Origin: Bacteroidota bacterium
GTDB taxonomy: Bacteria; Bacteroidota; Bacteroidia; 2-12-FULL-35-15
Assembly: GCA_017303895.1 (NCBI GenBank)
Contig: JAFLBF010000008.1
Location: 8,813-72,812 of the forward strand
Length of the DNA: 64,000 bases
Direction: 5' to 3'
Both the position numbers and the translations under genes were made by a program. The notes below the pieces were generated by a model, which was not told the origin of the DNA, did not search any database, and worked only from the letters and a program-made list of their open reading frames with translations. Shown here in pieces: positions 10,641 through 43,247 of this stretch (position 1 is the first letter of the stretch; each line of letters starts with the position of its first letter).

Positions 10641-10643
10641 CTT

Positions 10644-11606: not shown

Positions 11607-11609
11607 TCT

Positions 11610-12473: not shown

Positions 12474-12481
12474 ACGATCAA

Positions 12482-13468
12482 TTAAGGTACCTCAACTGCA
12501 TTTAAGATCTCATTCACAATCATTTCAGAAGTTATATTTTCGGCTTCCGCCTCATAAGTCAAGCCAATACGATGACGAAGCACATCCAGACAAACTGCAC
12601 GAACATCTTCAGGGATCACATATCCTCTTCGTTTGATGAACGCATAGGCTTTAGCGGCCATTGCTAAATTAATACTTGCACGAGGAGAACCACCAAAACT
12701 GATCAAACCTTTAAATTTATCTAGCTTATATTCTTGAGGATAACGGGTTGCAAAAACGATATCTACAATGTATTTCTCGATCTTTTCATCCATATACACA
12801 TCCTTAACCACTTTACGGGCGTTCAGGATATCTTCAGGCTTTAAAACAGTATTCACTGTAGGATACTCACTTGCTAAATTCTGACGAATGATTTTACGTT
12901 CATCTTCTTTGGTAGGATATCCGATCACCAATTTCAACATAAAACGATCCACCTGCGCCTCAGGTAAAGGGTATGTACCTTCCTGCTCAACAGGGTTTTG
13001 AGTTGCTAATACTAAAAAGGGATTGGGTAATTTAAATGTCTGTTCGCCAATGGTCACTTGTTTCTCCTGCATGGCTTCCAGCAAGGCACTCTGTACTTTT
13101 GCCGGAGCACGGTTGATCTCATCGGCTAAAATAAAATTAGCGAAAATTGGACCTTGCTTTATACTGAACTCTTCTTTCTTTTGATTGTAGATCATTGTTC
13201 CTATTAAATCGGCTGGAAGAAGATCGGGAGTAAACTGAATACGACTAAAATCAGCATGAATAGTATTGGCCAACGATTTAATGGCTAATGTTTTTGCCAA
13301 ACCCGGAACCCCTTCCAAAAGAATATGTCCATTTGAAAGCAATCCGATCAATAAGCGTTCAACCATGTATTTTTGCCCAACAATGACTTTGTCCATTTCC
13401 ATTGTTAACAGGTCAACAAAAGCACTTTCACGCTGTATGCGAGCGTTCAATTCCTGAATATCGGTCAT
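12482..13468 (-). CDS. moxR: MoxR-family AAA+ ATPase (first gene of the Bat operon)
   Basis: 328 aa. Walker A LLEGVPGLAKTL. Walker B ILADEINRA. MoxR-type C-terminal region. Confidence 0.85.
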   Translation of the reverse strand: MTDIQELNARIQRESAFVDLLTMEMDKVIVGQKYMVERLLIGLLSNGHILLEGVPGLAKTLAIKSLANTIHADFSRIQFTPDLLPADLIGTMIYNQKKEEFSIKQGPIFANFILADEINRAPAKVQSALLEAMQEKQVTIGEQTFKLPNPFLVLATQNPVEQEGTYPLPEAQVDRFMLKLVIGYPTKEDERKIIRQNLASEYPTVNTVLKPEDILNARKVVKDVYMDEKIEKYIVDIVFATRYPQEYKLDKFKGLISFGGSPRASINLAMAAKAYAFIKRRGYVIPEDVRAVCLDVLRHRIGLTYEAEAENITSEMIVNEILNAVEVP

Positions 13469-13681: not shown

Positions 13682-14134
13682 ATGAATACGCTCGAAAAGA
13701 AAGACATAAAATCGAAAAACAGCCTTTTCTACTCTGTCCAAGTACCTGTCAGGTTCAGTGAAGTAGATGCATTGGGGATCGTTTGGCATGGGCATTATCT
13801 TAAATTCTTTGAAGATGGCCGGGAGGCGTTTGGTCAGCAATATGGGCTAAGCTACCTTGATGTGTACAAATACAAATTTGCAACCCCTTTGGTCAACATC
13901 AATGTTGATTACAAAAAAACGGTGAAGTACGGAGATAGTGTCCGAATTGAAACAACTTTCATCAATTCTCCTGCTGCAAAGATCATTTTTAACTACAAAA
14001 TATTTCGCACATCTGACAATGAATTAGTGGCAACAGGTGAATCAACGCAAGTATTCATTAACATGGACCATGAACTTTTAATAACAATACCTCCATTTTT
14101 TGAAGAATGGAAACGAAAACACGGACTGGCTTAA
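13682..14134 (+). CDS. 4HBT/YbgC-family acyl-CoA or acyl-ACP thioesterase (hotdog fold)
   Basis: 150 aa. YSVQVPVRFSEVDALGIVWHGHYLKFFEDGREAF matches the 4-hydroxybenzoyl-CoA thioesterase family signature. First gene of the plus-strand biosynthetic cluster. Confidence 0.7.
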   Translation: MNTLEKKDIKSKNSLFYSVQVPVRFSEVDALGIVWHGHYLKFFEDGREAFGQQYGLSYLDVYKYKFATPLVNINVDYKKTVKYGDSVRIETTFINSPAAKIIFNYKIFRTSDNELVATGESTQVFINMDHELLITIPPFFEEWKRKHGLA

Positions 14135-14137
14135 CAT

Positions 14138-15289
14138 ATGAAGGTATTCGTTGCTGCAGATAGTATTATTTCACCGCTTGGTTTTAACAGTTCAGAAAAT
14201 TTCTTGAATCTGAAAGAAATGAAGAGTGGCATACAGTTTTTCGAGAAATCTTTTTTCTCCCATGAGCCTGTTCATGCCGCCTATATTGATCCTGCAAAAA
14301 CAGATGAGGCATTTTCCAAGATAGGGGATCCGAAAGCATTCACAAAATTGGAGAAAATAGCCATTCTCTCTATTCATCATGCAATTTCACAGAATCCAAA
14401 AATTGATATAAAAAGTAATAAAACACTTATTATCTTTTCTAGTACCAAAGGAAATGTAGAATTACTAGATCCTTCCAATAAAAGTCAATTTAGCAGAAAT
14501 AAACTTTTTTTATGGGATACTGCGAACACGATCGCTCAGTTTTTTGGAAATCCAAATAAACCTCTTACGGTCTCCAATGCATGTATTTCAGGAGTGGTTG
14601 CTTTAATTATAGGCAAACGATTACTAGTCCAGCAACTCTATGAAAACATTGTTGTTGTAGGTGCAGATGTATTGAGTCACTTTGTTGTTTCTGGCTTTCA
14701 ATCTTTCAAAGCGGTAAGCAATGAGATCGCTAAACCTTATGATGCCAATAGAACAGGTATTTCATTAGGGGAAGCAGCAGGAACCATTATATTAACCTCA
14801 AATCCTGATCTAGCCAGTCAATCGGCTATTGAAGTGAAGGGGGGCGCTAGTTCAAACGATGCAAATCATATTTCAGGTCCTTCCCGTACAGGAGATGGTT
14901 TATTACTTTCAATTGAAAACGCATTGCATGAATCGGCATTAAAACCGGAAGAGATCGATTTTATATCAGGGCATGGAACAGCCACATTATTCAATGATGA
15001 AATGGAATCCCTGGCAATTACAGATGCTCACCTAGAACGTGTTCCAATGAATAGTTTAAAAAGTTATTTCGGACATACTTTAGGAGCAGCTGGTATCATA
15101 GAATCCGTTGTTACACTTGAATCGATGAGAAACAACACTATTATTGGCACCTATAATTATTCAAGTCCGGGAACGTCTAAACCAATACATATTATTGATA
15201 AAACCCAAGCTGCAACATTAGTAAATTGCTTAAAAACAGCAGCCGGCTTCGGTGGTTGTAACGCAGCAATTGCTTTTAGTAAAATATGA
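14138..15289 (+). CDS. Beta-ketoacyl-ACP synthase family protein (KS)
   Basis: 383 aa. Thiolase fold. Cys-containing active-site region TVSNACISGVVAL. His motifs SGHGTATLFND and YFGHTLGAAG. ATG at 14138 is 3 nt after the thioesterase stop. Confidence 0.75.
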   Translation: MKVFVAADSIISPLGFNSSENFLNLKEMKSGIQFFEKSFFSHEPVHAAYIDPAKTDEAFSKIGDPKAFTKLEKIAILSIHHAISQNPKIDIKSNKTLIIFSSTKGNVELLDPSNKSQFSRNKLFLWDTANTIAQFFGNPNKPLTVSNACISGVVALIIGKRLLVQQLYENIVVVGADVLSHFVVSGFQSFKAVSNEIAKPYDANRTGISLGEAAGTIILTSNPDLASQSAIEVKGGASSNDANHISGPSRTGDGLLLSIENALHESALKPEEIDFISGHGTATLFNDEMESLAITDAHLERVPMNSLKSYFGHTLGAAGIIESVVTLESMRNNTIIGTYNYSSPGTSKPIHIIDKTQAATLVNCLKTAAGFGGCNAAIAFSKI

Positions 15290-15921
15290 CAGATAAATTA
15301 TACATATCTGCAGCTTGCTGCATTAAGAATGGAAAAGTGTTCATCAACGGGGAATTGGAACATGAGGACCAATCACATGCATTGTCCATTGATTTCTTAA
15401 AATCGCTCTATAAACACTATGCCATCAACTATCCTAAATTTTACAAGATGGATAGTCTATGTAAATTAGCATTTATTACATCGGAATTGATCTTGAAAAA
15501 TAGGCCAATAGCGCAAGAGTATGAAGGAAAAGACATTGCGATCGTCATTGCCAATAGCTCGTCATCATTAGAAATTGACACCGAACATCAACAAACTATT
15601 AATGACCCGGAAAACTATTTTCCGAGCCCAGCAAACTTTGTGTACACCTTACCGAACATACTCATTGGGGAAATAGCAATAAGAAATCAGATAAAAGGTG
15701 AGAATACTTTCTTTATTTTTGATAAATTTGACACGCATTTCATGGCAACCTACATCGAATCGCTTATTAAAACTCAAAAAGCAAAAGCGTGTATTGTCGG
15801 ATGGGTGGATTATTTCGAGAACAATTACGAAGCCTATTTGTATATTGTAGAAACAAACCCGAAGGGAATGCAATTAACACACGATCAAGAAACTATTAAC
15901 AAATTAACTATAAATAACTAA
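15286..15921 (+). CDS. Small KS-related protein (3-oxoacyl-ACP synthase-like accessory subunit) of the aryl-polyene-type cluster
   Basis: 211 aa. Start overlaps the upstream KS stop (ATGA). No catalytic Cys/His motifs are evident. Its position between KS and ACP matches the small KS-like genes of APE/flexirubin clusters. Confidence 0.4.
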   Translation: MTDKLYISAACCIKNGKVFINGELEHEDQSHALSIDFLKSLYKHYAINYPKFYKMDSLCKLAFITSELILKNRPIAQEYEGKDIAIVIANSSSSLEIDTEHQQTINDPENYFPSPANFVYTLPNILIGEIAIRNQIKGENTFFIFDKFDTHFMATYIESLIKTQKAKACIVGWVDYFENNYEAYLYIVETNPKGMQLTHDQETINKLTINN

Positions 15922-15925
15922 ACGC

Positions 15926-16180
15926 ATGGATGCATTAATCGACAAGTTAAAAGGAGAAATTATTGAGCAATTGAATTTAGAAGATGTAAAAAAAGAGGAT
16001 ATCGACAACGATGCTCCGCTTTTTGGTGATGGATTAGGACTAGATTCGATCGATGCATTAGAATTGATCGTTCTTTTAGAGAAGAACTATGGCATCAAAG
16101 TGTCGAACCCGCAGGATGGAAAGAAGATCTTTCAATCGATTCGCACCATGGCTGAATTCATTGAAGCCAACAAAAAATAA
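15926..16180 (+). CDS. Acyl carrier protein
   Basis: 84 aa. Phosphopantetheine attachment motif GDGLGLDSIDALELIV (DSxD/E). Confidence 0.8.
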   Translation: MDALIDKLKGEIIEQLNLEDVKKEDIDNDAPLFGDGLGLDSIDALELIVLLEKNYGIKVSNPQDGKKIFQSIRTMAEFIEANKK

Positions 16181-16203
16181 TTCTCCTGTCGTCTCTTCTT
16201 ATA

Positions 16204-17408
16204 TGAGCAATAAGGTTTACATCACCGGATTAGGTGTTATTTCCGCCATAGGAAGTAACATTGAAGAAACACTTGATTTTTTAAACAAACAAAAATCAGG
16301 AGTTACTTCATTGGATAATATCGTATCCCGATACCAACATCAGCTTCCTGTAGGTGAAGTAAAAGCTACCAATGCTGAATTAAAAAAATTAGCAGGAGTT
16401 GAACATTTACCTGATAATACCCGGACAACCTATTTGGGCATTATAGCAGCCAAGGAAGCAGTAAAAAATGCAGCTATAAAAGACATTAAAGAATTTCGTA
16501 CAGGGCTTATCTCGGCCACAAGTGTAGGTGGTATGGGAATCACTGAAGATCTATGGCTGGATTATCTCGATACAGGAAAGTCAGGTGAGTGGTTACACTA
16601 CATTGAAACACATGAATGTGGAGACAGTACCGAAAGTATTGCTGATAGCATTGGAGTAAAAGATTATCTTTCAACAATAAGTACTGCCTGCTCCTCTTCT
16701 GCCAACTCTATAATGTATGGAGCCAGATTGATCAAACATGGCATCCTGGATCGTGTCATTGTTGGTGGTACCGACTCCTTATCACGTTTTACCATTAATG
16801 GCTTTATGACATTAATGATCCTTGACAATGAAAATTGTAAACCCTTTGATGCAGAACGAAAAGGCTTAAACCTTGGTGAAGGGGCCGGATTCATTGTTCT
16901 TGAATCGGAAAGAGCTGCTAAAGGGAAAGAAATATTGGCTGAACTAAGCGGATATGGCAACTCCAATGATGCTTACCATCAAACAGCATCATCACCGGAC
17001 GGAGCAGGAGCTTATTTGGCAATGGAAAAAGCATTTAAAGTAAGTGGTTTAAAACCGGAAAACATTGACTACATCAATGCACATGGAACAGGAACCGCTA
17101 TCAACGATCTGTCAGAAGGAACAGCCATTACCAGAATGTTTGGTCAAAAAGTTCCATTGATCAGTTCTACAAAAGCATTTACAGGACATACACTTGGAGC
17201 CTGTGGCGGAATAGAAGCAGTATTTTCTGTTTTAGCAATAAAACACAACACTGTATTCCCTAATTTGAATTATAAGAATCAGATGCCTGAAGTGGAATTT
17301 AAACCCACCACAGAATTACTTCACACACCGATCAACCATGTGTTATCTAATTCATTTGGATTTGGAGGGAATACTTCAGCATTAATTTTTTCAAGACATC
17401 AGGCATAA
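16204..17408 (+). CDS. Beta-ketoacyl-ACP synthase II-like (FabF-type KS)
   Basis: The track ORF starts at 16089 but that frame overlaps the ACP gene. The first plausible start is the ATG at 16204 (MSNKVYITGLGVIS...). Active site STISTACSSSANS. His motifs NAHGTGTAIND and FTGHTLGACG. C-terminal GFGGNTSALIFS. Confidence 0.8.
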
Positions 17409-18473
17409 ATGGAAGCATATATCAACGGGGTTAGTGTCATTTCTCCTCAAAACACATTTAATACTACTGATTTCCTATCAGAACCTGTTGTGCATACAAA
17501 CAACTATTTACAATGTATTGAACCTTCCTATAAAGAATTTTTAAATCCAACGCTTGCGCGTAGAATGGCTCGCTTGATAAAGATGGGAATAGCAGCATCC
17601 AACATTTGTATGAAAGATGCCGGAGTTGAAATGCCGGATGCCATCATCACAGGAAGTGCTTTAGGATGCTTAGAGGATACTGAAAAATTTTTACTGGCTA
17701 TTATTGAAAACCAAGAACAGTTTTTAACTCCAACTTCATTTATTCAGTCGACACACAATACGGTGAGTGCACAAATTGCGCTGCAACTCAAGTGCATGAA
17801 CTATAACTTCACCTATGTTCATAAAGGTTTTTCTTTTGAAAGTGCTTTGCAAGATAGTTTAATGACCATTGCGGAAGGAGAAGCAAAGAATGTTCTTACC
17901 GGTGCACACGATGAAATGACCCCAAAATACTATCGTGTATGCGACAGAATTGGTTATTGGAAAAAAGAAGATATTTCCACTTTTGACTTGATCAAGTCAA
18001 AAACATCCGGCAGTATAGCTGGCGAAGGAGCCGCCTTCTTCATGCTTGGGAAAGAACAAAACGATCATTCCTATGCGAAATTAAGGGGCTTAAAAACCAT
18101 ATACAAGCCTGATAATAATAAGGCTGTTGAGCAAAATATTCATGAATTACTTTCAGAAAAAGGTCTGAGTATAAAAAATATAGATCTGGTTATCTATGGA
18201 ATCAATGGAGATTCCCGTTATGATCATGTTTACTATGATCTGAAAGACGAACTATTCAAAGATGCTACTGCTTGTTATTTCAAACACTTATGTGGCGAAT
18301 ATCAAACAGCATCCAGCTTTGCGATGTGGATCGCTGCGATGATACTAAAAACACAGACTGTGCCTGATGCAGTAGTTATTGGCGAAAACAAACACAAACC
18401 GGTTAAAAATATATTGATCTATAATACATTCCTTAATATTGATCATAGTGTATTTGTGCTTTCACAATGCTAA
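17409..18473 (+). CDS. KS-like chain-length-factor protein (thiolase fold, no active-site Cys)
   Basis: 354 aa. Starts immediately after the FabF-like stop (TAAATG). KS-like N-terminus (MEAYINGVSVISP) but no TACSS-type Cys motif. Typical of type II PKS/APE KS-CLF pairs. Confidence 0.6.
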   Translation: MEAYINGVSVISPQNTFNTTDFLSEPVVHTNNYLQCIEPSYKEFLNPTLARRMARLIKMGIAASNICMKDAGVEMPDAIITGSALGCLEDTEKFLLAIIENQEQFLTPTSFIQSTHNTVSAQIALQLKCMNYNFTYVHKGFSFESALQDSLMTIAEGEAKNVLTGAHDEMTPKYYRVCDRIGYWKKEDISTFDLIKSKTSGSIAGEGAAFFMLGKEQNDHSYAKLRGLKTIYKPDNNKAVEQNIHELLSEKGLSIKNIDLVIYGINGDSRYDHVYYDLKDELFKDATACYFKHLCGEYQTASSFAMWIAAMILKTQTVPDAVVIGENKHKPVKNILIYNTFLNIDHSVFVLSQC

Positions 18474-19240
18474 CATTTCGTTCGTCATTACTACTTTTCA
18501 TTCTTACACTAATCGGGTGTTTTTTTCTGATCTATTTTTATGACATAAGTTGCTGGTGGCTTTCTCTCCCGGTAGTATGTCTTAAATTGCTAATCATTTG
18601 GGGATCAGCAAATATTCAATCTAATTTTTACTTAAAGACACTAAACGGAGCCGATACTCAAAAAAAAGAAATAGCTATCACTTTTGATGATGGTCCAAAT
18701 GCTTTATTTACTCCTAAAATATTGAATGCATTAGCAAGTGAAGAAGCGCAAGCTACTTTTTTTGTGATCGGAAAAAACATCAATGGAAATGAAACACTTT
18801 TGCAAAAAATAAATGAAGCAGGACATACAATTGGCGGACATTCCTTCAGTCATGGGTTTATGATCGACTTTAAAAGCAAAAATGGTTTTATAGAAGAAAT
18901 AGTTCAAACCAATGATCTCATCCATAGAACAATTGGAAAAAGACCACGCTTATTCCGTCCACCCTATGGAGTAACAACCCCTAATATAGCATCAGCTGTT
19001 AAAGCATTAAATCAGGAGGTTATTGGCTGGAATGTAAGGTCGTTGGACACAACAAACGATAGTGCAGAAAAGATCATGGAACGTATTAAAAAAAGCCTTC
19101 AGCCGGGTTCTATCCTACTGTTTCATGATACATCCGATAAAACAGTGGATGTATTAAAACAAACCCTTAATTTTGCAAAAGAAAATGGCTTCAAAGTTGT
19201 AAGTATTGAGCAGCTATTAAATATCAAAGCGTATGAATAA
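18467..19240 (+). CDS. Polysaccharide deacetylase (NodB-homology domain), membrane anchored
   Basis: 257 aa. N-terminal TMs. NodB motifs ITFDDGPN and HSFSHG. Confidence 0.7.
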   Translation: MLTFRSSLLLFILTLIGCFFLIYFYDISCWWLSLPVVCLKLLIIWGSANIQSNFYLKTLNGADTQKKEIAITFDDGPNALFTPKILNALASEEAQATFFVIGKNINGNETLLQKINEAGHTIGGHSFSHGFMIDFKSKNGFIEEIVQTNDLIHRTIGKRPRLFRPPYGVTTPNIASAVKALNQEVIGWNVRSLDTTNDSAEKIMERIKKSLQPGSILLFHDTSDKTVDVLKQTLNFAKENGFKVVSIEQLLNIKAYE

Positions 19241-19871
19241 GTTTTTATTTGTTATTATATTTTTCCTTCTGTCTATTAGCATTTCCGCTCAAGTCCCTGC
19301 CGGATATAAACCGGTAAAAGATACGGCCGCTTTCAAGCAACAAATGCAAGCGCAATCCAAATTGGTGAATACCATTGAAAGTGATTTTACACAAGAAAAA
19401 TATTTAAGTGTTATGTCCGAAAAGATCATCACCAAAGGACATTTCCTTTTCAAAAAAGTGAACATGTTGCGTTGGGAATACACAGACCCATTGAAATATT
19501 TGATCGCTATCAATAAAGACAAGATGTTTATTAAAGACAATGGGAAAGTGAGTAAGTATGATATTAACTCAAATAAAATGTTCAAATCCATCAATGAAAT
19601 GATGGTAAATACAGTTCAAGGAAACCTACTGAATAACAAAGATTACAAAGCAAAATATTATGAAAATGAGAAATTCTATTTGCTGGAATTATCTCCGCTT
19701 CAAAAAGGAGCAAAAGACTTTTTAAAAGTGATCCAACTTTACATCGATAAAAAGGATTATGCTGTAGTGAAAGTTAAAATGATCGAGCCAAGTGACGATT
19801 ATACAATGATCGACTTTAGCAACCGTAAAACGAACCAACCAATAGGTGATGAAAAATTTATTGTTAAGTAG
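19233..19871 (+). CDS. LolA-like outer-membrane lipoprotein carrier protein
   Basis: 212 aa. Signal peptide MNKFLFVIIFFLLSISISAQ. LolA-like size and context (FTQEKYLSVMSEKIITKGHFLF...). Flexirubin/APE clusters characteristically encode LolA/LolB-like pairs. Confidence 0.6.
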   Translation: MNKFLFVIIFFLLSISISAQVPAGYKPVKDTAAFKQQMQAQSKLVNTIESDFTQEKYLSVMSEKIITKGHFLFKKVNMLRWEYTDPLKYLIAINKDKMFIKDNGKVSKYDINSNKMFKSINEMMVNTVQGNLLNNKDYKAKYYENEKFYLLELSPLQKGAKDFLKVIQLYIDKKDYAVVKVKMIEPSDDYTMIDFSNRKTNQPIGDEKFIVK

Positions 19872-20481
19872 TTTTATTGTTCTCTTTCTCTACGGATGCT
19901 CATTGGGGCATTATGAGAAACTTAAAAGTACTTTAAAGCCTGAATCCGTTGCTCTGCATTCTCTCTTTGGGGAGAATTTCAACTCATTCTTATTCAAAAC
20001 AAATATTCGCGTTTATGGCAAAGACTTTAGCGGCTTGTTGGTAACAAAACAAATGCAACCAAATGACTATCGGGTTATTTTCACAACTGAATTAGGGATG
20101 AAATTATTCGATTTCGAATTTAAAGACACTTCATTTACATTGCATTATTGTGTTCCCCAATTTAACAGACCTGCACTCTTAAAAACTATCCAAAAGGATA
20201 TAGAGATCCTTCTCATGAACGAAACAAAGAATAAAACAGCGGAGGTATTCATCAATCCAAAAGACAGCGCTTTTGTTTACAAATTCAAAGACAGCAAACT
20301 TGACAATTATTACTTTCTAGATAAATTATCAAGACAAATTTACCGGATTGAACACGCAAAAAAGAACACTAAAAAAATCACCTTTGATCTGAACAATTAT
20401 TCAGATCAATTTCCAAGCAATATCATGATCAAACATCATGATATCAAATTAAAGATCGAATTAAATCTTTTAAAGAAATAA
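19849..20481 (+). CDS. Predicted lipoprotein, possible LolB-like partner
   Basis: The track starts at the GTG at 19846. The ATG at 19849 gives MKNLLLSSFIVLFLYGCSLG, a lipoprotein-type signal with Cys. No other motif recognised. Confidence 0.4.
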   Translation: MKNLLLSSFIVLFLYGCSLGHYEKLKSTLKPESVALHSLFGENFNSFLFKTNIRVYGKDFSGLLVTKQMQPNDYRVIFTTELGMKLFDFEFKDTSFTLHYCVPQFNRPALLKTIQKDIEILLMNETKNKTAEVFINPKDSAFVYKFKDSKLDNYYFLDKLSRQIYRIEHAKKNTKKITFDLNNYSDQFPSNIMIKHHDIKLKIELNLLKK

Positions 20482-20483
20482 GC

Positions 20484-21245
20484 ATGCAATCTGCCTCTCC
20501 AACATATAGCTTACCGGTTCTACTTTATCATCGTATTGTCAACAAACAGTCGATAATAGGAAAACATAAAGTATATGTATGGGAAAAGGATTTTGAAAAA
20601 CAAATGCAATACTTGAAGGATAATGGATACCAGACCATTACTTTTTATGACCTTCAAAAAGAGCCCAAAATGGATCTTTACAAAAAGGTCATGATCACCT
20701 TTGATGATGGTTATCTGGACAACTATGAATTACTATTTCCTATTCTAAAGAAACATGGATTCAAGGCAATCATTTACCTTGTAACCCGCATCGATCATAA
20801 TGCATGGGGCGTGAAAGAAGGGGAACCGAGGATCAATATGATGTCGGCTGCACAAGTAAAAGAAATGAGTGATTATGGTGTTGAAATGGGGGGACATACA
20901 CAACATCATGTTGATCTGTTACGTCACAATGCAACAGAACAACTTTCTGAGATCAAAGGCTCCAAAGAGGATGTAGAAAAACTTACAGGCAAACCAGCTA
21001 TTAGTTTTGCATACCCTTTTGGCGGGATCAATGAAGACATTAAACAGATTACAAAAGAAGCAGGTTTTACCTATGCAGTTTCAACAAACACAGGACCTAA
21101 AGAATTTGGAAAAGATTGGTTCCAGATAAGACGCATTGAGGTAACACCTAAAACAAATATGCTCAGCTTTAAAAACAAGGTAAGCGGACGTTACTTCTAC
21201 CCTTCTTTCCTAAAATCGCTTTTTACGGGCAAACAAACTAAATAA
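20484..21245 (+). CDS. Polysaccharide deacetylase family protein (NodB-homology)
   Basis: 253 aa. MITFDDGYLDNY (NodB motif 1) and GGHTQHH (His motif). Confidence 0.7.
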   Translation: MQSASPTYSLPVLLYHRIVNKQSIIGKHKVYVWEKDFEKQMQYLKDNGYQTITFYDLQKEPKMDLYKKVMITFDDGYLDNYELLFPILKKHGFKAIIYLVTRIDHNAWGVKEGEPRINMMSAAQVKEMSDYGVEMGGHTQHHVDLLRHNATEQLSEIKGSKEDVEKLTGKPAISFAYPFGGINEDIKQITKEAGFTYAVSTNTGPKEFGKDWFQIRRIEVTPKTNMLSFKNKVSGRYFYPSFLKSLFTGKQTK

Positions 21246-21280
21246 TCTTTTATCTTCGCATAACGAAAAAAGCAGAATAG

Positions 21281-22162
21281 ATGAAAGTATCCGGTTTTTC
21301 CTTCATTAAGAACGCCATAAAATTTGATTACCCAATTATTGAGGCCATTACCTCTATTCTTCCAGTTTGCGATGAATTTGTTGTAGCAGTTGGCAAATCG
21401 GATGATGATACCCTCAACTATATCAAATCGATCAATTCTCCAAAAATAAAGATCATTGAAACGGTTTGGGACGAAACATTACGCGAAGGCGGAAGAGTGT
21501 TGGCAGATGAAACCAATAAAGCATTTAGAGCCATTTCACCAGATAGCGACTGGGCATTTTATATTCAAGGAGATGAAGTCATTCATGAAAAATACCTGAA
21601 TAACATTAAGAATGCTATGATCAAGTACAAGAATGATAAAGAAGTAGATGGCTTGGTATTCGACCACCTGAATTTTTATGGTTCATACGATTATATAGCA
21701 GATTCCAGACATTGGCAAAAAAAGGAGATCAGGATCGTTCGAAATAAAAAGAACATCTACTCTTACAAAGACGCCATGAGTTTCAGGAAAGATAATGATG
21801 ACAAGCTGAATGTAGCTTATGTTGATGCGTGCATTTATCATTACGGATGGGTTAAACCCCCCGCTGCTATGCAACAAAAACAATTAGAGTTTCAAAAACT
21901 ATGGCACGATGACAATTGGATCAAAGAGAATGTACCACAAGTAGATGAGTTTGATTTTTCAAATGTTGACTCAGTAGCTTTATTCAAAGAAACGCATCCC
22001 AAAGTGATGGAACAACGGCTAAAGCGATTGACATGGAAATTTAGTTTCGATCCAACTAAAGCTAAAAAAGAATCACTCAGAAGACGATTCTTAAATCTGA
22101 TCTATAAAAAAACAGGAGTTCATATTGGGGAGTTCAAAAATTATAATCTAATTAGAAAGTAA
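21281..22162 (+). CDS. GT-A-fold glycosyltransferase-like protein (family 2-like), cluster-associated
   Basis: 293 aa, FSFIKNAIKFDYPIIEAITSILPVCDEFVVAVGKSDDDT. This pattern is commonly annotated as glycosyltransferase family 2 in flexirubin-type clusters. I cannot confirm a DxD motif. Confidence 0.45.
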   Translation: MKVSGFSFIKNAIKFDYPIIEAITSILPVCDEFVVAVGKSDDDTLNYIKSINSPKIKIIETVWDETLREGGRVLADETNKAFRAISPDSDWAFYIQGDEVIHEKYLNNIKNAMIKYKNDKEVDGLVFDHLNFYGSYDYIADSRHWQKKEIRIVRNKKNIYSYKDAMSFRKDNDDKLNVAYVDACIYHYGWVKPPAAMQQKQLEFQKLWHDDNWIKENVPQVDEFDFSNVDSVALFKETHPKVMEQRLKRLTWKFSFDPTKAKKESLRRRFLNLIYKKTGVHIGEFKNYNLIRK

Positions 22163-22166
22163 AAAC

Positions 22167-22532
22167 ATGCTTATCAACGACTTTTTCAAAATAAAGGACA
22201 TTCAACAAGGCGAAAAATACAATATTCAAATTGAATTGAATCCAAAGCACAAAGTATATCAAGGTCATTTTCCCGGAAATCCTGTAGCGCCTGGTGTGTG
22301 TTTAACCCAAATGGTAAAGGAAACTGTGGAGCATATCACAGGTAAGAAATTGACAATGGTTACCGGTGACAATCTTAAATTCACAGCCGTTCTGAACCCG
22401 GAGATCAATCCGGAAGTAATAATGACCCTTGCCATCAAAACAAAAGAAAATGGTCATCTTCAAGCTGATAGTAATGTGTCTGCAGGTGACAGTAGCTTCT
22501 TCTCAATTAAAGCCAGTTTTAGAGAGAGCTAG
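22167..22532 (+). CDS. FabA/FabZ-like 3-hydroxyacyl-ACP dehydratase (hotdog)
   Basis: 121 aa. YQGHFPGNPVAPGVCLTQM is the FabZ-type catalytic-His region (HFPxxPVxPG). Confidence 0.65.
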   Translation: MLINDFFKIKDIQQGEKYNIQIELNPKHKVYQGHFPGNPVAPGVCLTQMVKETVEHITGKKLTMVTGDNLKFTAVLNPEINPEVIMTLAIKTKENGHLQADSNVSAGDSSFFSIKASFRES

Positions 22533-22620
22533 CACTTCAGCTGAATTGCTGGTTTCCCTTCAATTTTAAGCTCATTTTATACTAAAAAATCAGGCGAAAA
22601 ATGTTATTTTTGTCTGCCTT

Positions 22621-22650
22621 AAAAGTTGCCAATGGCAACCTTTTTTGTTT
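22621..22650 (+). terminator. Putative intrinsic terminator inside the biosynthetic cluster
   Basis: AAAAGTTGCC-AAT-GGCAACC followed by TTTTTTGTTT. This is a GC-containing stem (GTTGCC/GGCAAC, extendable with a one-base bulge) plus T-tract. It lies between the dehydratase stop (22532) and the next ATG (22668). Confidence 0.5.
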
Positions 22651-22667
22651 AGGAATGTTAAGTTAAT

Positions 22668-23891
22668 ATGAGCAACGTGGACAAGGAATTGTATAGAAAT
22701 AAAATGAGCACACTAAAATGCTGTGTGATCATTCCTACCTACAATAACGAAAAAACGATCGTTGCAGTGATCAATAGCGTATTGGAGTTTACATCTGATG
22801 TAATTGTGGTGAACGATGGGGCTACGGATTCAACGGCAGAGCTTTTAAAACAATTTGCAAAAAGCATTACCATTTTATCCTATCTTCCTAACAAAGGAAA
22901 GGGGGTCGCATTACGCACAGGCATAAAATATGCTCAAGAAAAAGGCTTTCGTTATGCCATAACGATTGATAGTGATGGCCAACATTTTGCCGATGACATT
23001 CCCGTTTTCATTGATAAAATAGAATTAGAGCCCGACTCACTCCTTGTTGGAGCACGCAACTTAAATCAGGAGAATATGCCAAAGAAAAACACCTTTGGTA
23101 ATAAATTCTCTAATTTTTGGTTCAAGCTTTTTACGCATATTGATCTGCCTGATACACAATCAGGTTACCGCCTATATCCAATCGAGAAAATGAAGGGTAG
23201 CAGATATTTCACAACCAAATATGAATTTGAAGTAGAAGTAATGGTAAAGGCTGCATGGAAGGGAATTCATGTAACATCTGTACCGATAAGAGTTTTCTAT
23301 GCCGAAGGGAAAGAGCGAGTTACACATTTCAGACCAGGAAAGGATTTTACACGTATCAGTTTATTGAACACGTATTTGTTTTTTCTGGCTTTTTTATGGT
23401 ACAAACCAAAGTTTATCATTCAAAATTTTACCTGGTCCAATATCAAAAAATTTCTTTCAAAACATTTTTTAGATGCCAATGAATCGGTATTAAAAAAATC
23501 AATGGGTGTTGCTTTTGGAGTGTTTATGGGCATCATTCCGATTTGGGGTTATCAATTTGTCAGTGCTCTGATATTAGCTCATTTTCTAAAACTAAACAAA
23601 GCTATTGTTGGATTAGCTGCTCAAATAAGTGTTCCTCCAATGATCCCTGTTCTTATCTACGGAAGTTTAAAAACCGGACAGTTCACTTTAGGAAAAGATA
23701 TACATGAAAGTATTTTCAATTCTGAAATAAATTCTGTTCAGGAGATCTGGGAGGCCATGAAACTTCATTTGGTTGAGTATCTCGTAGGGAGTGTTGTATT
23801 TGCTATTGTTATGGCCATCATATTCGGGCTGATCACATTTATCACATTAAAAATAGTAGGGAAAAAAGTTCTTATCAAAATCGATCAATAA
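22668..23891 (+). CDS. Family 2 glycosyltransferase fused to a C-terminal DUF2062-like membrane domain
   Basis: 407 aa. GT2 signature CCVIIPTYNNEKTI...VVNDGATDST...ITIDSDGQH (DxD-like). C-terminal hydrophobic segments (MGVAFGVFMGIIPIWGYQFVSALILAHFL...). Confidence 0.7.
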   Translation: MSNVDKELYRNKMSTLKCCVIIPTYNNEKTIVAVINSVLEFTSDVIVVNDGATDSTAELLKQFAKSITILSYLPNKGKGVALRTGIKYAQEKGFRYAITIDSDGQHFADDIPVFIDKIELEPDSLLVGARNLNQENMPKKNTFGNKFSNFWFKLFTHIDLPDTQSGYRLYPIEKMKGSRYFTTKYEFEVEVMVKAAWKGIHVTSVPIRVFYAEGKERVTHFRPGKDFTRISLLNTYLFFLAFLWYKPKFIIQNFTWSNIKKFLSKHFLDANESVLKKSMGVAFGVFMGIIPIWGYQFVSALILAHFLKLNKAIVGLAAQISVPPMIPVLIYGSLKTGQFTLGKDIHESIFNSEINSVQEIWEAMKLHLVEYLVGSVVFAIVMAIIFGLITFITLKIVGKKVLIKIDQ

Positions 23892-23896
23892 ATTAA

Positions 23897-26800
23897 GTGC
23901 ATTTATTTTTTACATCCATATACCGATTTTTAGCAAAAAGAAGGATCCTCTTTTTTGTCCTTTTCCTTGCCTCTATCGCATTCTCCGTTTTCTTTGCCAG
24001 CAAATTGTCGCTGGAAGAGGATATTACCAAGATGATGCCGACCGATGCAAAGGTAGAGAGACTGAATAAGGTATTCAAAAACTCTAAATTCCTCGACCGC
24101 TTAGTTGTTACTATTTCCCCATCAGATACCACAAAAACGTCTGAACCGGATCAATTGATTGCATTTGCAGACAGTTTGGTTGCTAAAATCAGTCTGATCG
24201 ATACCTCACTCGTAAAAAATATCACCTATAAGGTGAATGATGAGGTGATGTATGACGTGTACAATACATTTATAGAAAACTTACCTGTTTTTTTAGAGGA
24301 AAAAGACTACTCTATTTTATCGGATTTGATAAAACCCGAACGTATCGACTCCACCATGGAGAAGAATTACAAAACCCTTCTTTCTCCTGCCAGTATGGTG
24401 CTAAAGAAGAATATTCTTCGCGACCCGATCGGGATAACACCTTATGCTTTGAAGAGAATGCAAAGTCTTCAATTTGATGATAATTTTGAATTAGATAATG
24501 GATACATCTTTACAAAAGATAAAAAACACCTCTTGTTCTTTATCACTCCAAAGCCTGTTTCATCGGAAACCGCAAAAAACACCGAACTGCTTACTCAATT
24601 AGACACTGCTATTCATCAATGCAGTCGATTAAACCCGAAAATACATGCAGAATATTTTGGTGGTTTAGCTGTTGCTGTTGGCAATGCAAAGCAGATCAAA
24701 CAAGATGTGATCCTCACACTTTCTATCACTGTAATCGGATTATTTTTATTCATCAGTTTGTTCTTTAAACGCCTAGAAGTATTCTTTATCATTTTTATCC
24801 CGGTAGTATTTGGAGGCTTATTCTCTCTCTCTATGCTCTATCTTCTTAAAGGCGAAATATCTGCTATTGCATTAGGAGCGGGCTCTATTATCCTGGGGAT
24901 AGCCATGGATTACACCATCCATTTTTATACGCATTTCAAACATTTAAATTCAGCAGAAGGCACCATTAAAGATCTTTCATTCCCTTTAACTCTTGGAAGC
25001 ACCACAACCATAGGAGCTTTATTAAGCTTGGTATTTGTAAAATCGGAAGCACTCCAGGACTTTGGGATGTTTGCAGCCTTTGCATTAATGGGTGCTGCAC
25101 TTTTTACACTCATCTTATTCCCACATTTATTAAGAAAAAGGAAACAGGCAGCCAGTACCCCGGTTGAACACAAAACAAATATCATTGAAAAGATCGCTGC
25201 TTATCCATTTGAAAAAAATAAATACCTGATCATTTCGATCATATTATTGTGTGGAATATCATTATTCACCTCTCAAAAAGTAGGTTTTGAAGGCGATATG
25301 ATGAATTTTAATTACATGAGCAAAGAATTAGCCCAGGCAGAAAGTAATTTGAATGCGATCAGCAATGTTTCATTAAAAAGTGTTTATCTGGTTTCAAGTG
25401 GAAAAAACTTGGACGAAGCCTTGGCTAATAATGAAAAGAATCTTCCTAAACTGGAAGAACTTCAACAAAAAAATATTATTAGAAAATATTCAACGATCAA
25501 TACATTATTACTATCAAAGGCGGAGCAACAAAAAAGAATAGAGCGCTGGAATAGCTTTTGGGCAGAAGAGAAAAAGGCTGAATTAAAGCAGTCATTGATT
25601 GAAAAAAGCAGTAAGTATAAATTTAAAGAAAATGCATTTGATCAGTTCTACGCTCTTTTAGAAAAAGACTTTACACCAATTGATGCCAATGTATTCAGTG
25701 GTCTTCGCTCCACATTATTAGACAATTATATTTCTGAGAATATAGATGAAACCACTGTCGTAACCGTTATCAAAACAACTGCTGAAAACGAGGACAGAGT
25801 CTTTAACTCATTTACAGAGAATGAACATTTAGTAGTATTTGATAAAAAATTTCTGACCAACCGTTTTGTTGAGATCATCAAAAATAATTTCAACCTGATC
25901 CTTACTATCTCCTCTATGCTGGTATTGATCATGCTGATCATTTCCTATGGCAGATTTGAACTGGCACTGATCACCTACATTCCTATGGTATTAAGCTGGC
26001 TCTGTATTTTAGGATTAATGGGACTTTTCGGCATTAAGTTTAACATCATCAACATCATCATTTCCACATTCATTTTTGGATTAGGTGATGATTACAGCAT
26101 CTTCATTACGGATGCGATGTTGAACGAATATAAAACCGGACAAAAGAATCTGGCATCTTACAAAACAGGAATTTTCATTTCAGCGATCACCACCATGATA
26201 GGAATTGGTGTTCTCATTTTTGCATCACATCCGGCATTAAAGTCTATTGGCTTGATCACCATAATAGGAATGTTCTCGGTATTGCTCATTTCAAATACCA
26301 TCCAACCTGCATTGTTCCGTTTCTTTATTACAAACAGAACAGATAAAAAAAGAGTTCCTCTAACATTATTGAGCATACTGCAATCAATATTGGCTTTCGG
26401 GTGGTTTACCTTCGGCTGTTTTACATTAATACCAATGGGGTTTGTGATCGTAAAACTGTTACCTATCCCTAAAAAAATTCGTCTAAGAATATTTCATCAG
26501 ATCCGGCACTATTATACTAAGTCGATGATCCATATTCACGCACATGTGAGGAGAAAGTTCATCAACGAACAAAACGAACGATTCGACAAGCCAGCTGTTG
26601 TTGTAGCCAATCATCACTCTGTAATTGATTCTTTGTTAATGCAATCGTTGAATCCTAAACTCATTTTAATGGTAAACGATTGGGTATGGGACTCTCCTTT
26701 TATGGGACCAATTGTCCGTTTAGGAGGTTTTATTCCGAAGTCGGCCGGATATGAGGAGAACTTAGATAAGATCCGTGAACTCATCAATGACGGTTATTCT

Positions 26801-27745
26801 CTTGCCATTTTCCCGGAAGGATCCCGATCTGAAACACCGAAAATTGGCCGATTCCACAAAGGAGCATTTTACATTGCCGAAAAATTAAATGTTGATATTG
26901 TACCTATCATTTTCCATGGAACAGCTTTTATTCAAGGAAAAGATGACAGTGCTCTTTTAAAGAATGGTAGTGTAACTGTAAAATATCTTCCGAGAATTCC
27001 TGCTTCAGACACAAACTTTGGAAAAGATTACAATGAAAAAACAAAGAACATCAGCAAATATTTCAAGCAGGAGTATGCCTTGATGCGTCAGGAAATAGAA
27101 ACGGTAGATTATTACTTTAACCGCCTATCCAAAAATTATATTTACAAAGGACCGGTTTTAGAATGGTACATGCGCATAAAAGTAGGATTGGAAGATAATT
27201 ACAGGCTGTTTGAATCACTTTTACCTAAAAAGGGAACCATTACAGATATTGGTTGTGGATATGGATTTTTACCATATATGCTCAGCTTTATGAGTGAGGA
27301 CAGGATAGTTATTGGCACCGATTACGATGAAGAAAAAATAGCAGTGGCAGATCACTGCTTTTCCAAGACCGATAAATTATCCTTCTTTGCGGCAGATGCA
27401 ACAAAATGTGAATTACCGAAGAGTGATGCATTTATCATGAGTGATATATTACACTATCTTCCAAAGCAGGAACAAGAGAAGCTGATCGTGAAGTGCATGA
27501 ACAGCTTAAATGATGGAGGAATGATACTTTTAAGGGATGCGGATGCCAGTTTGACAAACAGACATTGGGGAACGCGTTATACAGAATTTATTTCTACTAA
27601 CTTTGGATTCAATAAAACACAAAATAAACTTGAATTTGTATCATCAAGCTTCATTGAAGATGTTGTAAAAAAGAATAATTACAAGATCCAAAAGATTGAC
27701 AATACAAAACTTACTTCTAACATTACATACGTTATAAAAAAATAG
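23897..27745 (+). CDS. Trifunctional fusion: MMPL/RND-like exporter, 1-acyl-sn-glycerol-3-phosphate (PlsC-type) acyltransferase and class I SAM-dependent methyltransferase
   Basis: 1282 aa. Track start is a GTG, so the true start is uncertain. About aa 1-860: two sets of TM helices with large loops (MMPL-like). About aa 906: acyltransferase HX4D motif VVVANHHSVIDSLL, nt about 26609-26630, with FPEGSRS downstream. About aa 1117: methyltransferase motif I ITDIGCGYGFLPY, nt about 27245-27270. Confidence 0.75.
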   Translation: MHLFFTSIYRFLAKRRILFFVLFLASIAFSVFFASKLSLEEDITKMMPTDAKVERLNKVFKNSKFLDRLVVTISPSDTTKTSEPDQLIAFADSLVAKISLIDTSLVKNITYKVNDEVMYDVYNTFIENLPVFLEEKDYSILSDLIKPERIDSTMEKNYKTLLSPASMVLKKNILRDPIGITPYALKRMQSLQFDDNFELDNGYIFTKDKKHLLFFITPKPVSSETAKNTELLTQLDTAIHQCSRLNPKIHAEYFGGLAVAVGNAKQIKQDVILTLSITVIGLFLFISLFFKRLEVFFIIFIPVVFGGLFSLSMLYLLKGEISAIALGAGSIILGIAMDYTIHFYTHFKHLNSAEGTIKDLSFPLTLGSTTTIGALLSLVFVKSEALQDFGMFAAFALMGAALFTLILFPHLLRKRKQAASTPVEHKTNIIEKIAAYPFEKNKYLIISIILLCGISLFTSQKVGFEGDMMNFNYMSKELAQAESNLNAISNVSLKSVYLVSSGKNLDEALANNEKNLPKLEELQQKNIIRKYSTINTLLLSKAEQQKRIERWNSFWAEEKKAELKQSLIEKSSKYKFKENAFDQFYALLEKDFTPIDANVFSGLRSTLLDNYISENIDETTVVTVIKTTAENEDRVFNSFTENEHLVVFDKKFLTNRFVEIIKNNFNLILTISSMLVLIMLIISYGRFELALITYIPMVLSWLCILGLMGLFGIKFNIINIIISTFIFGLGDDYSIFITDAMLNEYKTGQKNLASYKTGIFISAITTMIGIGVLIFASHPALKSIGLITIIGMFSVLLISNTIQPALFRFFITNRTDKKRVPLTLLSILQSILAFGWFTFGCFTLIPMGFVIVKLLPIPKKIRLRIFHQIRHYYTKSMIHIHAHVRRKFINEQNERFDKPAVVVANHHSVIDSLLMQSLNPKLILMVNDWVWDSPFMGPIVRLGGFIPKSAGYEENLDKIRELINDGYSLAIFPEGSRSETPKIGRFHKGAFYIAEKLNVDIVPIIFHGTAFIQGKDDSALLKNGSVTVKYLPRIPASDTNFGKDYNEKTKNISKYFKQEYALMRQEIETVDYYFNRLSKNYIYKGPVLEWYMRIKVGLEDNYRLFESLLPKKGTITDIGCGYGFLPYMLSFMSEDRIVIGTDYDEEKIAVADHCFSKTDKLSFFAADATKCELPKSDAFIMSDILHYLPKQEQEKLIVKCMNSLNDGGMILLRDADASLTNRHWGTRYTEFISTNFGFNKTQNKLEFVSSSFIEDVVKKNNYKIQKIDNTKLTSNITYVIKK

Positions 27746-27750
27746 TTGCT

Positions 27751-29265
27751 ATGTCAAAATATGATATCGTCATTATAGGAAGCGGTCTGGGGGGATTAGA
27801 GTCTGCATACATTCTTAGTAAAGAAGGATACAAGGTATTAGTTCTTGAAAAGAACAGACAATTAGGAGGCAGCTTACAAATATTTGTTAGAGATAAAGCT
27901 ATTTTTGATACCGGAATTCATTATTTGGGAGGCTTGGATGAAGGACAAAACCTTAACCAGAGTTTCAAATATTTTAATATAATGGATAAATTACATCTTC
28001 AAAAGATGGATATGGATGGATTCGACCGTATCTCTTTTGATGGTGATGAGAAAGAATACAAGCATGCTCAAGGCTACGATAATTTTGTGGAGCAGTTGGC
28101 TAAAGACTTTCCAAAAGAGCGTGAAAATCTAAAACTTTATGCTCAAAGAATTCAGGAAGTATGTGACTATTTCCCATTATATCAGTTGAAAGAAGACGAT
28201 GCTCCAATTATTGGAACAAAATACTTAGATATAAATGCTAAGGATTTTATTGCATCCATTACATCCGATGTCCGTTTGCAAAATGTACTAGCAGGCTCCA
28301 ACCCTTTGTATGCAGGCGATGGAAGCAAAACACCTTTGTATGTTCACGCTTTAGTAGTCAACACCTATATTGAAAGTTCTTATAAATGTATCGATGGAGG
28401 CGCTCAAATTGAAAAGCATTTAACAAAAAACATCAAAGCGCTTGGAGGAGAAATCCGAAACTACTGTGAAGTAACAAAGATCGTTGAAAAAGATGGCTTG
28501 ATTACACATGTCGAATTATCGACTGGTGAGATCATTGAAGGGAAAAACTTTATTAGCAACATTCATCCTGCAACGACTATGCATATGCTGGAAAGCACTA
28601 AAATAAAAAAAGCATACAGTAATCGTTTACAAGGACTACAAAACTCTGTTTCCGCATTCATTATCGACATTGTTCTTAAACCGAACACATTCAAATATAT
28701 CAACCATAATCATTATCATTTCAGACGAAACGATGTGTGGTCAAGTGTGGATGTTGCAGGAGATCAATGGCCGGATGGTTATTGTGTTTTTGTTCCGAAA
28801 TCATCCCGTTCTGGTGAATATGCCGACAGCATGACCATTTTAAGTTACATGAAATACGATGAAGTAAAAAAATGGGAAGATACATTTGCAACGATCCCCA
28901 AACACAATGAAAGCAGAGGCCAGGAATATGAAGATTTCAAAATTGAAAGAGCCGAAAGAGTGATCGATGAGGTTGTAAAAAAATTCCCTGATCTACGAAG
29001 TAAGATCAAATCATACACTACCTCTACTCCACTCACCTATAGGGATTACATTGGAGCAAAAGATGGCGGGTTATATGGTATTGCAAAAGATTACCGTGAT
29101 CCGCTAAAAACGTTTATTTCACCAACAACTAAGATCCCTAATTTATTCTTTACCGGTCAGAATTTAAACATGCACGGTGTGTTGGGAGTAACTGTTGGTG
29201 CTATCAGAACTTGTGGTGTGTTTGTTGGGCAGAATTATTTGATCCAGAAGATCAATCAGGCTTAA
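27751..29265 (+). CDS. FAD/NAD(P)-dependent oxidoreductase, phytoene-desaturase (CrtI)-like
   Basis: 504 aa. N-terminal Rossmann motif YDIVIIGSGLGGLESAYILSKEGYKVLVLEKN. Confidence 0.75.
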   Translation: MSKYDIVIIGSGLGGLESAYILSKEGYKVLVLEKNRQLGGSLQIFVRDKAIFDTGIHYLGGLDEGQNLNQSFKYFNIMDKLHLQKMDMDGFDRISFDGDEKEYKHAQGYDNFVEQLAKDFPKERENLKLYAQRIQEVCDYFPLYQLKEDDAPIIGTKYLDINAKDFIASITSDVRLQNVLAGSNPLYAGDGSKTPLYVHALVVNTYIESSYKCIDGGAQIEKHLTKNIKALGGEIRNYCEVTKIVEKDGLITHVELSTGEIIEGKNFISNIHPATTMHMLESTKIKKAYSNRLQGLQNSVSAFIIDIVLKPNTFKYINHNHYHFRRNDVWSSVDVAGDQWPDGYCVFVPKSSRSGEYADSMTILSYMKYDEVKKWEDTFATIPKHNESRGQEYEDFKIERAERVIDEVVKKFPDLRSKIKSYTTSTPLTYRDYIGAKDGGLYGIAKDYRDPLKTFISPTTKIPNLFFTGQNLNMHGVLGVTVGAIRTCGVFVGQNYLIQKINQA

Positions 29266-43209: not shown

Positions 43210-43247
43210 GAAAGAATAACTTAAGCAGTTATTCTTTCTTTTTTCTT
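43209..43247 (+). terminator. Putative intrinsic terminator between convergent genes
   Basis: AGAAAGAATAAC (43209-43220), loop TTAAGCA, GTTATTCTTTCT (43228-43239), followed by TTTTTTCTTG. The hairpin spans both stop codons (PgpH-like stop 43207-09; minus-strand gene stop 43221-23). Confidence 0.5.

Follow-up and report, generated by a model that had tools for sequence, protein, structure and literature searches.

What does a bacterium gain from encoding a membrane exporter, an acyltransferase and a methyltransferase in a single polypeptide, and can such a gene be taken at face value? This question is raised by a 1282-amino-acid open reading frame (ORF) located within a 64,000-nucleotide stretch of Bacteroidota DNA (contig JAFLBF010000008.1), which as a whole is called the window below. 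A reading of the DNA letters, hereafter the sequence-only reading, had presented this fusion as joining activities that are separate genes in Proteobacterial aryl-polyene (APE) clusters, had asked for its start codon and its assembly to be checked, and had argued that the fusion obligately couples acylation and methylation to export. Based on homology, domain order and gene neighborhood, we assign the gene as an orthologue of FlxU, an already-known protein in a known kind of gene cluster, and consider it an ordinary member of its family. We also think it reasonably probable that FlxU orthologues serve as late-stage ‘assembly and export’ proteins of flexirubin-type aryl-polyene clusters in Bacteroidota.

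The central claim, that one ORF unites the three activities, holds up well. The reading frame is uninterrupted, and each of the three Pfam families scores above its gathering cutoff. Specifically, the MMPL family (PF03176) matches in two stretches with 47.9 bits (cutoff 20.5), the acyltransferase family (PF01553) matches aa 887-1006 with 76.6 bits (cutoff 23, E 2e-21), and Methyltransf_25 matches aa 1115-1208 with 40.4 bits (cutoff 27), where the families Methyltransf_25, 11 and 12 together cover aa 1115-1211. Likewise, the motifs NHHSVID (aa 905-911), FPEGSRS (aa 972-978) and DIGCGYG (aa 1117-1123) lie where they had been placed. Homologues that are collinear over the entire length (aa 1-1282), with 40-86% identity and each carrying the full set of three Pfam domains, are found in Chitinophaga, Sporocytophaga, Mucilaginibacter, Niabella and other genomes.

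The idea that this fusion is new or unusual, however, is not borne out. FlxU (Cpin_1873 / Fjoh_1078) of the flexirubin cluster was described in 2014 as an exporter with acyl- and methyltransferase domains, the RefSeq protein name for the family begins with ‘trifunctional’, and a taxonomic paper from 2026 lists ‘U (78)’ under the full ‘trifunctional’ name (PMC12968099). In a scan that included one genome per species, at least 436 species genomes were found to encode a relative of the fusion, and the fused architecture is dominant among them.

The doubt surrounding the GTG start codon can be set aside. An in-frame TAA (23894-23896) is positioned immediately 5′ of the GTG, and the stop codon of the upstream glycosyltransferase (GT) gene is located at 23889-23891. 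The next candidate start, a TTG, lies at codon 37, and its use would cost the protein its first transmembrane (TM) helix. Moreover, the GTG lines up with Met-1 in approximately 30 of 36 aligned family members, some with identities as low as 32%, and the aligned N-termini share the conserved motif M..lF..iY.f. For these reasons we accept the GTG start as correct, and alternative start codons were rejected on the same grounds.

Could a sequencing or assembly error have merged three neighboring genes into one ORF? We give this explanation next to no chance, and found no points in its favor. The identical 1282-residue sequence is present in at least six independent assemblies. Of the best 80 loci from the species scan, 76 read through the three domains in a single frame free of stops, two run into a contig end, and the remaining two are interrupted within the pump, such that no break falls at a domain border. 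The linkers between the domains are short and conserved, and GC content is even along the whole gene. In addition, the one frameshift that separates the domains in a relative (P0228, L083:1-1721, on a 2.4-kb scaffold) is a one-nucleotide slip within a T6 run where TM12 meets the acyltransferase, which is probably a sequencing error and indicates that this gene is apt to be broken up by errors rather than merged by them. The fusion is real and no product of misassembly.

Split orthologues, which the sequence-only reading had suggested looking for, are correspondingly scarce. A query composed of the acyltransferase and methyltransferase (AT-MT) portion was compared with 1.8 billion cluster representatives and yielded 509 matches at E<1e-30. 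Within the best 150 of these, 114 are at least 1200 amino acids long and carry AT-MT at the C-terminus, and the shorter matches are mostly fragments at contig ends. The candidates for natural split versions were discarded with one exception. This exception (P0196; L084:78-1493 and L085:76-1491) is an AT-MT gene with in-frame stops upstream and a FlxV-like gene following it, recovered on two independent contigs that both end about 76 nucleotides upstream of the gene. It seems to be a genuine stand-alone AT-MT protein, and is the only such case.

The N-terminal module is a homologue of the aryl-polyene exporter ApeM and an HpnN/MmpL-like member of the RND superfamily, with both termini predicted to lie in the cytoplasm. 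It had been described as a 12-TM transporter of MMPL/RND type that extends to about aa 860, and although the type is correct, the module really ends near aa 813. Hydropathy analysis reveals 12 TM helices, which are also seen in an AlphaFold2 model covering aa 83-1282 (1200 residues; mean pLDDT 84.3, pTM 0.70). The helices are arranged in the RND pattern of 1+5 / 1+5, wherein TM1 is followed by a loop (aa 36-266) and TM2-6, and TM7 is followed by a second loop (aa 463-660) and TM8-12, with both large loops being periplasmic. Segments rich in K and R precede TM1 and follow TM12, which is consistent with a cytoplasmic N-terminus and with cytoplasmic acyltransferase and methyltransferase domains. 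ApeM aligns by hhalign with a probability of 99.7% (aa 22-813 against residues 10-765 of 772), the closest solved structure by sequence is HpnN (3e-28), and the top Foldseek matches are HpnN and MmpL4/5 (E 5e-15). The NCBIfam equivalog cutoff for HpnN is not reached (110.5 bits vs 751.85; 49.2 vs 1100), and scores for HAE3/HpnN are well under equivalog cutoffs (110 vs 752 and 352 bits). Two Asp-Tyr pairs may form a proton relay. The Asp of the TM10 pair is kept in 36 of 36 sequences, as are G728 and G730. At the corresponding position 338 of TM4, where the nearby H342 is invariant, D is present in 22 of 36 homologues and N in 13 of 36, and therefore the proton-relay assignment is tentative.

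Fifteen residues past TM12 begins what we identify, by its alignments, as a homologue of ApeD of the PlsC type. Residues 10-226 of Thermotoga maritima PlsC (PDB 5KYM) align to aa 832-1044 (E 5e-23), and ApeD residues 12-206 align from aa 834 with the anchor included (hhalign 98.9%). Because both alignments begin at aa 832-834, the hydrophobic region spanning aa 820-880 is identified as a PlsC-type anchor, which would keep the domain at the cytoplasmic leaflet, and its two helices appear in the structural model at aa 824-854 and 859-880. The domain scores 60.8 bits with TIGR00530, which is under the cutoff of 103, and we predict that it is not a housekeeping PlsC. Therefore the GenBank label ‘1-acyl-sn-glycerol-3-phosphate acyltransferase’ appears to over-annotate the protein.

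The acyltransferase is joined without a flexible linker to the C-terminal domain, which exhibits the features of a class I methyltransferase that uses S-adenosylmethionine (SAM): motif I of the form (D/E)xGxGxG, an acidic residue after beta-2, and a seven-stranded Rossmann fold. Beyond the motif residues, D1142, D1144, D1183, H1186 and Y1187 are invariant in the 36 sequences. The nearest solved structures by sequence are generic class I methyltransferases (about 1e-11). Sequences of the family average 54.7-59.3% identity to the query in this domain and 54.3% in the acyltransferase core, and the methyltransferase is better conserved than the periplasmic loops of the pump, which points to selection for its enzymatic function.

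The surroundings of the gene agree with the aryl-polyene/flexirubin-type context that had been proposed for it. The fusion is the penultimate member of a co-directional operon of 15 genes (13682-29265, forward strand) separated by overlaps or gaps of only a few bases (Table 1), and two of its genes exceed the equivalog cutoffs for flexirubin-type LolA2 and LolB2. Genes for lolA2 and lolB2 are always found within flexirubin-type loci (De Smet et al. 2025, PMC11885536). Searches with tblastn located homologues of ApeO/R, C, E, I, J, K, M and D in the window, whose only acyl carrier protein (ACP) is the one encoded in this operon. The 13-gene order thioesterase (TE), ketosynthase (KS), FlxL, ACP, KS, KS, deacetylase, LolA2, LolB2, dehydratase (DH), GT, FlxU and FlxV recurs in Chitinophaga, Bacteroides sp. 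GM023, Bacteroidales and others. The GT-FlxU-FlxV trio is almost universal among related loci, with the FlxV-type gene being a near-universal downstream partner of the fusion. On the basis of gene content, we interpret the cluster in the window as only the flxH-V ‘half’ of a flexirubin cluster.

Two local peculiarities of the operon deserve mention. For the second deacetylase and the 293-aa ORF (20484-22162), none of 80 related loci, that of the close relative L008 among them, yields a homologue at E<1e-5, and this segment is a lineage-specific insertion between LolB2 and the dehydratase of an otherwise conserved operon. Also, the ORF of the second KS overlaps the ACP gene by 92 nucleotides. 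Homologues and Pfam models align only from about residue 34-41 of this KS, and therefore its true start is probably near 16190.

Table 1. Features of the FlxU-type gene and of the operon in which it resides (window coordinates; CLF, chain length factor; FAD, flavin adenine dinucleotide).
Feature	Residues (aa)	Nucleotides	Strand	Basis
FlxU-type trifunctional gene (operon gene 14)	1-1282	23897..27745	+	GenBank MBN8696757.1, 100% identical
RND/MMPL transporter module	1-813	23897..26335	+	Pfam MMPL, hhalign to ApeM, PDB HpnN, Foldseek, TM segments
TM4 D338-Y339, putative proton-relay pair	338-339	24908..24913	+	36-sequence alignment
TM10 D732-Y733 in GLGDDY, putative proton-relay pair as in MmpL/HpnN	732-733	26090..26095	+	Alignment
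PlsC-type N-terminal two-helix membrane anchor	820-880	26354..26536	+	Alignments to 5KYM and ApeD; model helices
PlsC/LPLAT acyltransferase catalytic core	881-1044	26537..27028	+	PF01553, 5KYM, ApeD
HX4D catalytic motif, H906...D911	906-911	26612..26629	+	H906, D911 invariant in 36 sequences
FPEGSR motif	972-977	26810..26827	+	P973, E974, R977 invariant in 36 sequences
Class I SAM-dependent methyltransferase; conserved helical cap (1045-1109) and Rossmann core	1045-1282	27029..27742	+	
SAM-binding motif I, DIGCGYG	1117-1123	27245..27265	+	D1117, G1119, G1121, G1123 invariant
Upstream operon genes (1-13)		13682..23891	+	Profile and homology searches
Gene 1: thioesterase, FlxH/ApeK-like			+	
Gene 2: KS, FlxI			+	
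Gene 3: FlxL-like	211 aa		+	
Gene 4: ACP, FlxM		15926-16180	+	49% identical to ApeE
Gene 5: KS, FlxN/ApeO-like		16089-17408 (ORF)	+	
Gene 6: KS-like/CLF, FlxO/ApeC-like			+	
Gene 7: polysaccharide deacetylase, FlxP			+	
Gene 8: LolA2			+	NF053544 (LolA2_flexi), 225.4 bits vs cutoff 125
Gene 9: LolB2			+	NF053540 (LolB2_flexi), 157.7 bits vs cutoff 60
Gene 10: second polysaccharide deacetylase		20484-21245	+	
Gene 11: ORF	293 aa	21281-22162	+	No Pfam or NCBIfam match
Gene 12: FabA-like dehydratase, FlxS/ApeI-like			+	
Gene 13: GT2+DUF2062, FlxT/ApeJ-like			+	
Gene 15: FlxV-type FAD oxidoreductase, CrtI/carotenoid-isomerase-like		27751..29265	+	5 nt past fusion

How might the three modules work together? 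In the APE literature, ApeD is described as acylating a lysophospholipid, ApeJ as both glycosylating and acylating, and ApeM as acting with ApeL/ApeN in export. By analogy, the acyltransferase of the fusion would take the ACP-bound product of the cluster’s type II polyketide synthase, carried by the single ApeE-like ACP, and would attach it by an ester bond to a hydroxyl-bearing acceptor embedded in the cytoplasmic leaflet of the membrane. This acceptor could be a lyso-glycerophospholipid-type anchor, as for ApeD, on which the GT2-DUF2062 enzyme and the deacetylase(s) might also operate. The product would form in the inner leaflet beside the pump, whose proton-driven RND module, employing D338-Y339 and D732-Y733, would extract the lipid and pass it to periplasmic LolA2 and then to LolB2 in the outer membrane, into which it would be inserted. 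The methyltransferase would act on the same membrane-bound substrate or its precursor, but not as a ring methylase. Late membrane-side acylation and a methylation that are coupled to export towards LolA2/LolB2 therefore seem likely by this analogy. The stronger proposition that the coupling is obligate is plausible, in that a conserved fusion makes coupling of these steps a reasonable inference.

Several observations weigh against assigning the protein to late assembly and export of an aryl polyene. Isolated flexirubin is a simple ester with a dialkylresorcinol, and it is FlxW rather than FlxU that has been proposed to form the resorcinol ester bond (Schöner et al.), so that a product of this acyltransferase has never been observed in Bacteroidota. 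We found no experiments on any FlxU protein in the searchable literature, where the function of FlxU/Fjoh_1078 is represented only by the 2014 annotation and the 2026 gene table. The donor, acceptor, methyl target and transport direction of the fusion are all inferred, and the Asn found in place of TM4 Asp338 in 13 of 36 homologues further tempers the proposed proton relay. Finally, the 64-kb window carries none of the genes for tyrosine ammonia-lyase (TAL, FlxA), CoA ligase (ApeH/FlxY), ketoreductase (ApeQ/FlxB), FlxW or DarA/B, and it likewise lacks homologues of the ring methylase ApeB/FlxJ. Given these absent pathway genes, this organism is at most a candidate producer of an aryl polyene. 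Homologues of the halogenase FlxK, ApeG and ApeP are also missing from the window.

The absence of a ring methylase bears directly on the role of the fused methyltransferase. With no other methyltransferase or ApeB/FlxJ homologue in the cluster, the domain could fill that role, and flexirubin does bear one methionine-derived methyl group on its aryl ring. If so, the fusion would simply bundle the functions of ApeM, ApeD and ApeB, as the sequence-only reading had implied. We judge this to be unlikely. Deletion of apeB yields desmethyl APE lipids (bioRxiv 10.1101/2020.12.19.423268), which identifies ApeB as the ring methylase, and its close relative in Bacteroidota is a separate protein. Namely, the FlxJ-type gene of Chitinophaga sp. 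YR627 (L009:897-1961) and apeB of CFT073 (L002:14239-15294) encode proteins with 47% identity over 352 aa (E 4e-127). In contrast, the fused domain resembles ApeB only in the Rossmann core (hhalign 85.5%) and FlxJ only marginally (BLASTP E 0.002 over 118 aa), and it shows no full-length similarity to ApeB, a 352-aa protein with an N-terminal helical domain. FlxJ is therefore the ApeB equivalent in Bacteroidota, and the ring methylase (FlxJ / ApeB) is conserved between Bacteroidota and Proteobacteria. Furthermore, Chitinophaga has both FlxJ and the FlxU methyltransferase, yet C. pinensis flexirubin incorporates only one labelled methyl group, derived from methionine and positioned on the aryl ring, which argues that the fused domain acts elsewhere than on the pigment ring. 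The domain is also universal in its family, whereas F. johnsoniae lacks FlxJ. Taken together, these comparisons lead us to regard the fused methyltransferase as an additional, family-specific module and not as the counterpart of ApeB.

Two further explanations concern the cargo and its direction of travel. One holds that this organism makes no aryl polyene, and that its flxH-V module builds and exports some other polyketide-type or fatty-acyl membrane lipid. The gaps listed above favor such a view, particularly as the window lacks TAL, 4-coumarate-CoA ligase, ketoreductase and a second dehydratase as well as FlxW, FlxY, DarA/B, the halogenase and the ring methylase. The closest relative on a long contig (L008, 78% identity) also has no FlxW- or FlxY-like gene downstream of FlxV, whereas two other loci (L023 and L052) have both. 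The fusion is found, moreover, in metagenome-assembled genomes of Bacteroidales, Rikenellaceae and Marinilabiliaceae, groups of anaerobes that are not known for flexirubin. Nevertheless, the genes of the C. pinensis pathway are themselves divided between two loci, darAB lying apart from the others, the ACP shares 49% identity with the chromophore carrier ApeE, and LolA2 and LolB2 exceed cutoffs set for flexirubin equivalogs, and we therefore consider this possibility decidedly unlikely. The other explanation reverses the pump: as an inward carrier or flippase, it would bring an outer-leaflet lyso-lipid to the acyltransferase for re-acylation, much like the LplT-Aas systems that repair lysophospholipids. 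Transporter-acyltransferase fusions that follow LplT-Aas-type logic do exist, and NCBIfam NF006386/PRK08633 (1147 aa, acyl-[ACP]--phospholipid O-acyltransferase) matches the acyltransferase domain at model positions 418-553. PRK08633 is a fusion of the major facilitator superfamily protein LplT with PlsC and an acyl-ACP synthetase. The pump of the present fusion, however, is of the ApeM/HpnN/MmpL type, characterized members of which all move lipids outward. Because the operon also supplies a LolA2 of its own for the periplasm and a LolB2 for the outer membrane, and flexirubin is an outer-membrane pigment, inward transport is very improbable.

Assembly and outward export of a flexirubin-type lipid thus remains our preferred function for the FlxU orthologue. 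As found, the gene has little significance, since it is an ordinary orthologue of a named family whose exact sequence is already in GenBank. The useful point is that its methyltransferase differs from the ApeB/FlxJ ring methylase, which sharpens the question of how flexirubin is exported in F. johnsoniae and C. pinensis. The conserved GT-FlxU-FlxV trio suggests, by analogy, that flexirubin-type pigments may be made as larger anchored lipids, like the aryl polyenes of Proteobacteria. The fused methyltransferase has no counterpart in Proteobacterial APE clusters and coexists with FlxJ in Chitinophaga, whose isolated flexirubin has only one methionine-derived methyl group. On these grounds, we entertain the speculative and rather doubtful idea that the domain cryptically methylates a membrane-anchored pigment-lipid conjugate, undescribed from Bacteroidota and similar to the glycolipid form of APE lipids (APEL), and that this methylation, taking place on the pump, licenses RND export. 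If this idea were true, ‘flexirubin’ in its isolated form would be what hydrolysis leaves of a larger lipid, or a side product of that lipid, as proved to be so for Proteobacterial APEs.

Other parts of the window hold features that are separate from the pigment operon. Divergent from it on the reverse strand is an operon of the Bacteroides aerotolerance type (5272-13468; BatA-BatD, MoxR AAA, DUF58, VWA and TPR proteins), beyond which a 1288-aa protein (1243-5112, reverse strand) carries repeats of the Ig-like, SprB and PKD types together with a CHU_C signal for type IX secretion (T9SS), making it a probable T9SS-secreted surface adhesin. An unusual, doubled Ddl-like protein is encoded by an 894-aa ORF (43221-45908, reverse strand) with two tandem D-Ala-D-Ala ligase modules and an ATP-grasp match, wherein the N-terminal domain is matched twice and the C-terminal domain in four stretches. 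The region from 46000 to 64000 is a polysaccharide cluster of O-antigen or capsule type with a GC content of 0.30-0.34, compared to about 0.36-0.38 elsewhere. Within this cluster, a 645-aa fusion of HisF-like and GT4/GT1 domains (56971-58908) adjoins a glutamine amidotransferase (56349-56963).

Among known systems, the closest are the flexirubin clusters of Bacteroidota. FlxU of C. pinensis and Fjoh_1078 of F. johnsoniae match the window fusion in their three domains, domain order and length (~1280 aa), and Chitinophaga loci encode proteins with 44-47% identity to it over aa 1-1282. The Chitinophaga clusters are collinear from flxH to flxV and present the same neighbors, with FlxT (GT2-DUF2062) upstream and FlxV (FAD oxidoreductase) downstream. 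Unlike the C. pinensis cluster, that of the window lacks flxJ (the ApeB-type methyltransferase), the adjacent flxK (halogenase) and the flanking flxA-G and flxW-Y genes, and it has the extra second deacetylase and 293-aa ORF. More distant are the APE/APEL clusters of E. coli and Xenorhabdus, which share with the window KS/CLF, ApeE-like ACP, TE, DH, GT2-DUF2062 and LolA/LolB-like genes. The assertion that exporter, acyltransferase and methyltransferase are separate genes in Proteobacterial APE clusters is correct for E. coli CFT073, where they encode 772-aa, 273-aa and 352-aa proteins. Although ApeM corresponds end to end with the pump and ApeD with the acyltransferase plus its anchor, the implied equivalence fails for the third domain, as no APE domain corresponds to the fused methyltransferase and ApeB is a different, FlxJ-type enzyme. 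ApeG, ApeH, ApeP and ApeQ, conversely, have no homologue in the window.

Structurally characterized proteins provide a final point of reference. The PlsC of T. maritima and aa 832-1044 of the fusion have in common an alpha/beta core preceded by a two-helix anchor, as well as the motifs HX4D and FPEGxR. The hopanoid transporter HpnN (PDB 5KHN/6WU0) and mycobacterial MmpL3/4/5 resemble the pump in having 12 TM helices and two periplasmic domains, and the putative Asp-Tyr relay pairs of TM4 and TM10 may be a further shared feature, but they are only 11-15% identical to it and none has a fused acyltransferase or methyltransferase. MmpL4/5 do bind the acyl carrier protein AcpM on the cytoplasmic side, and several of the MmpL4/5 structures matched by Foldseek are complexes with AcpM, providing a non-covalent parallel to a pump that is coupled with acyl-carrier chemistry.

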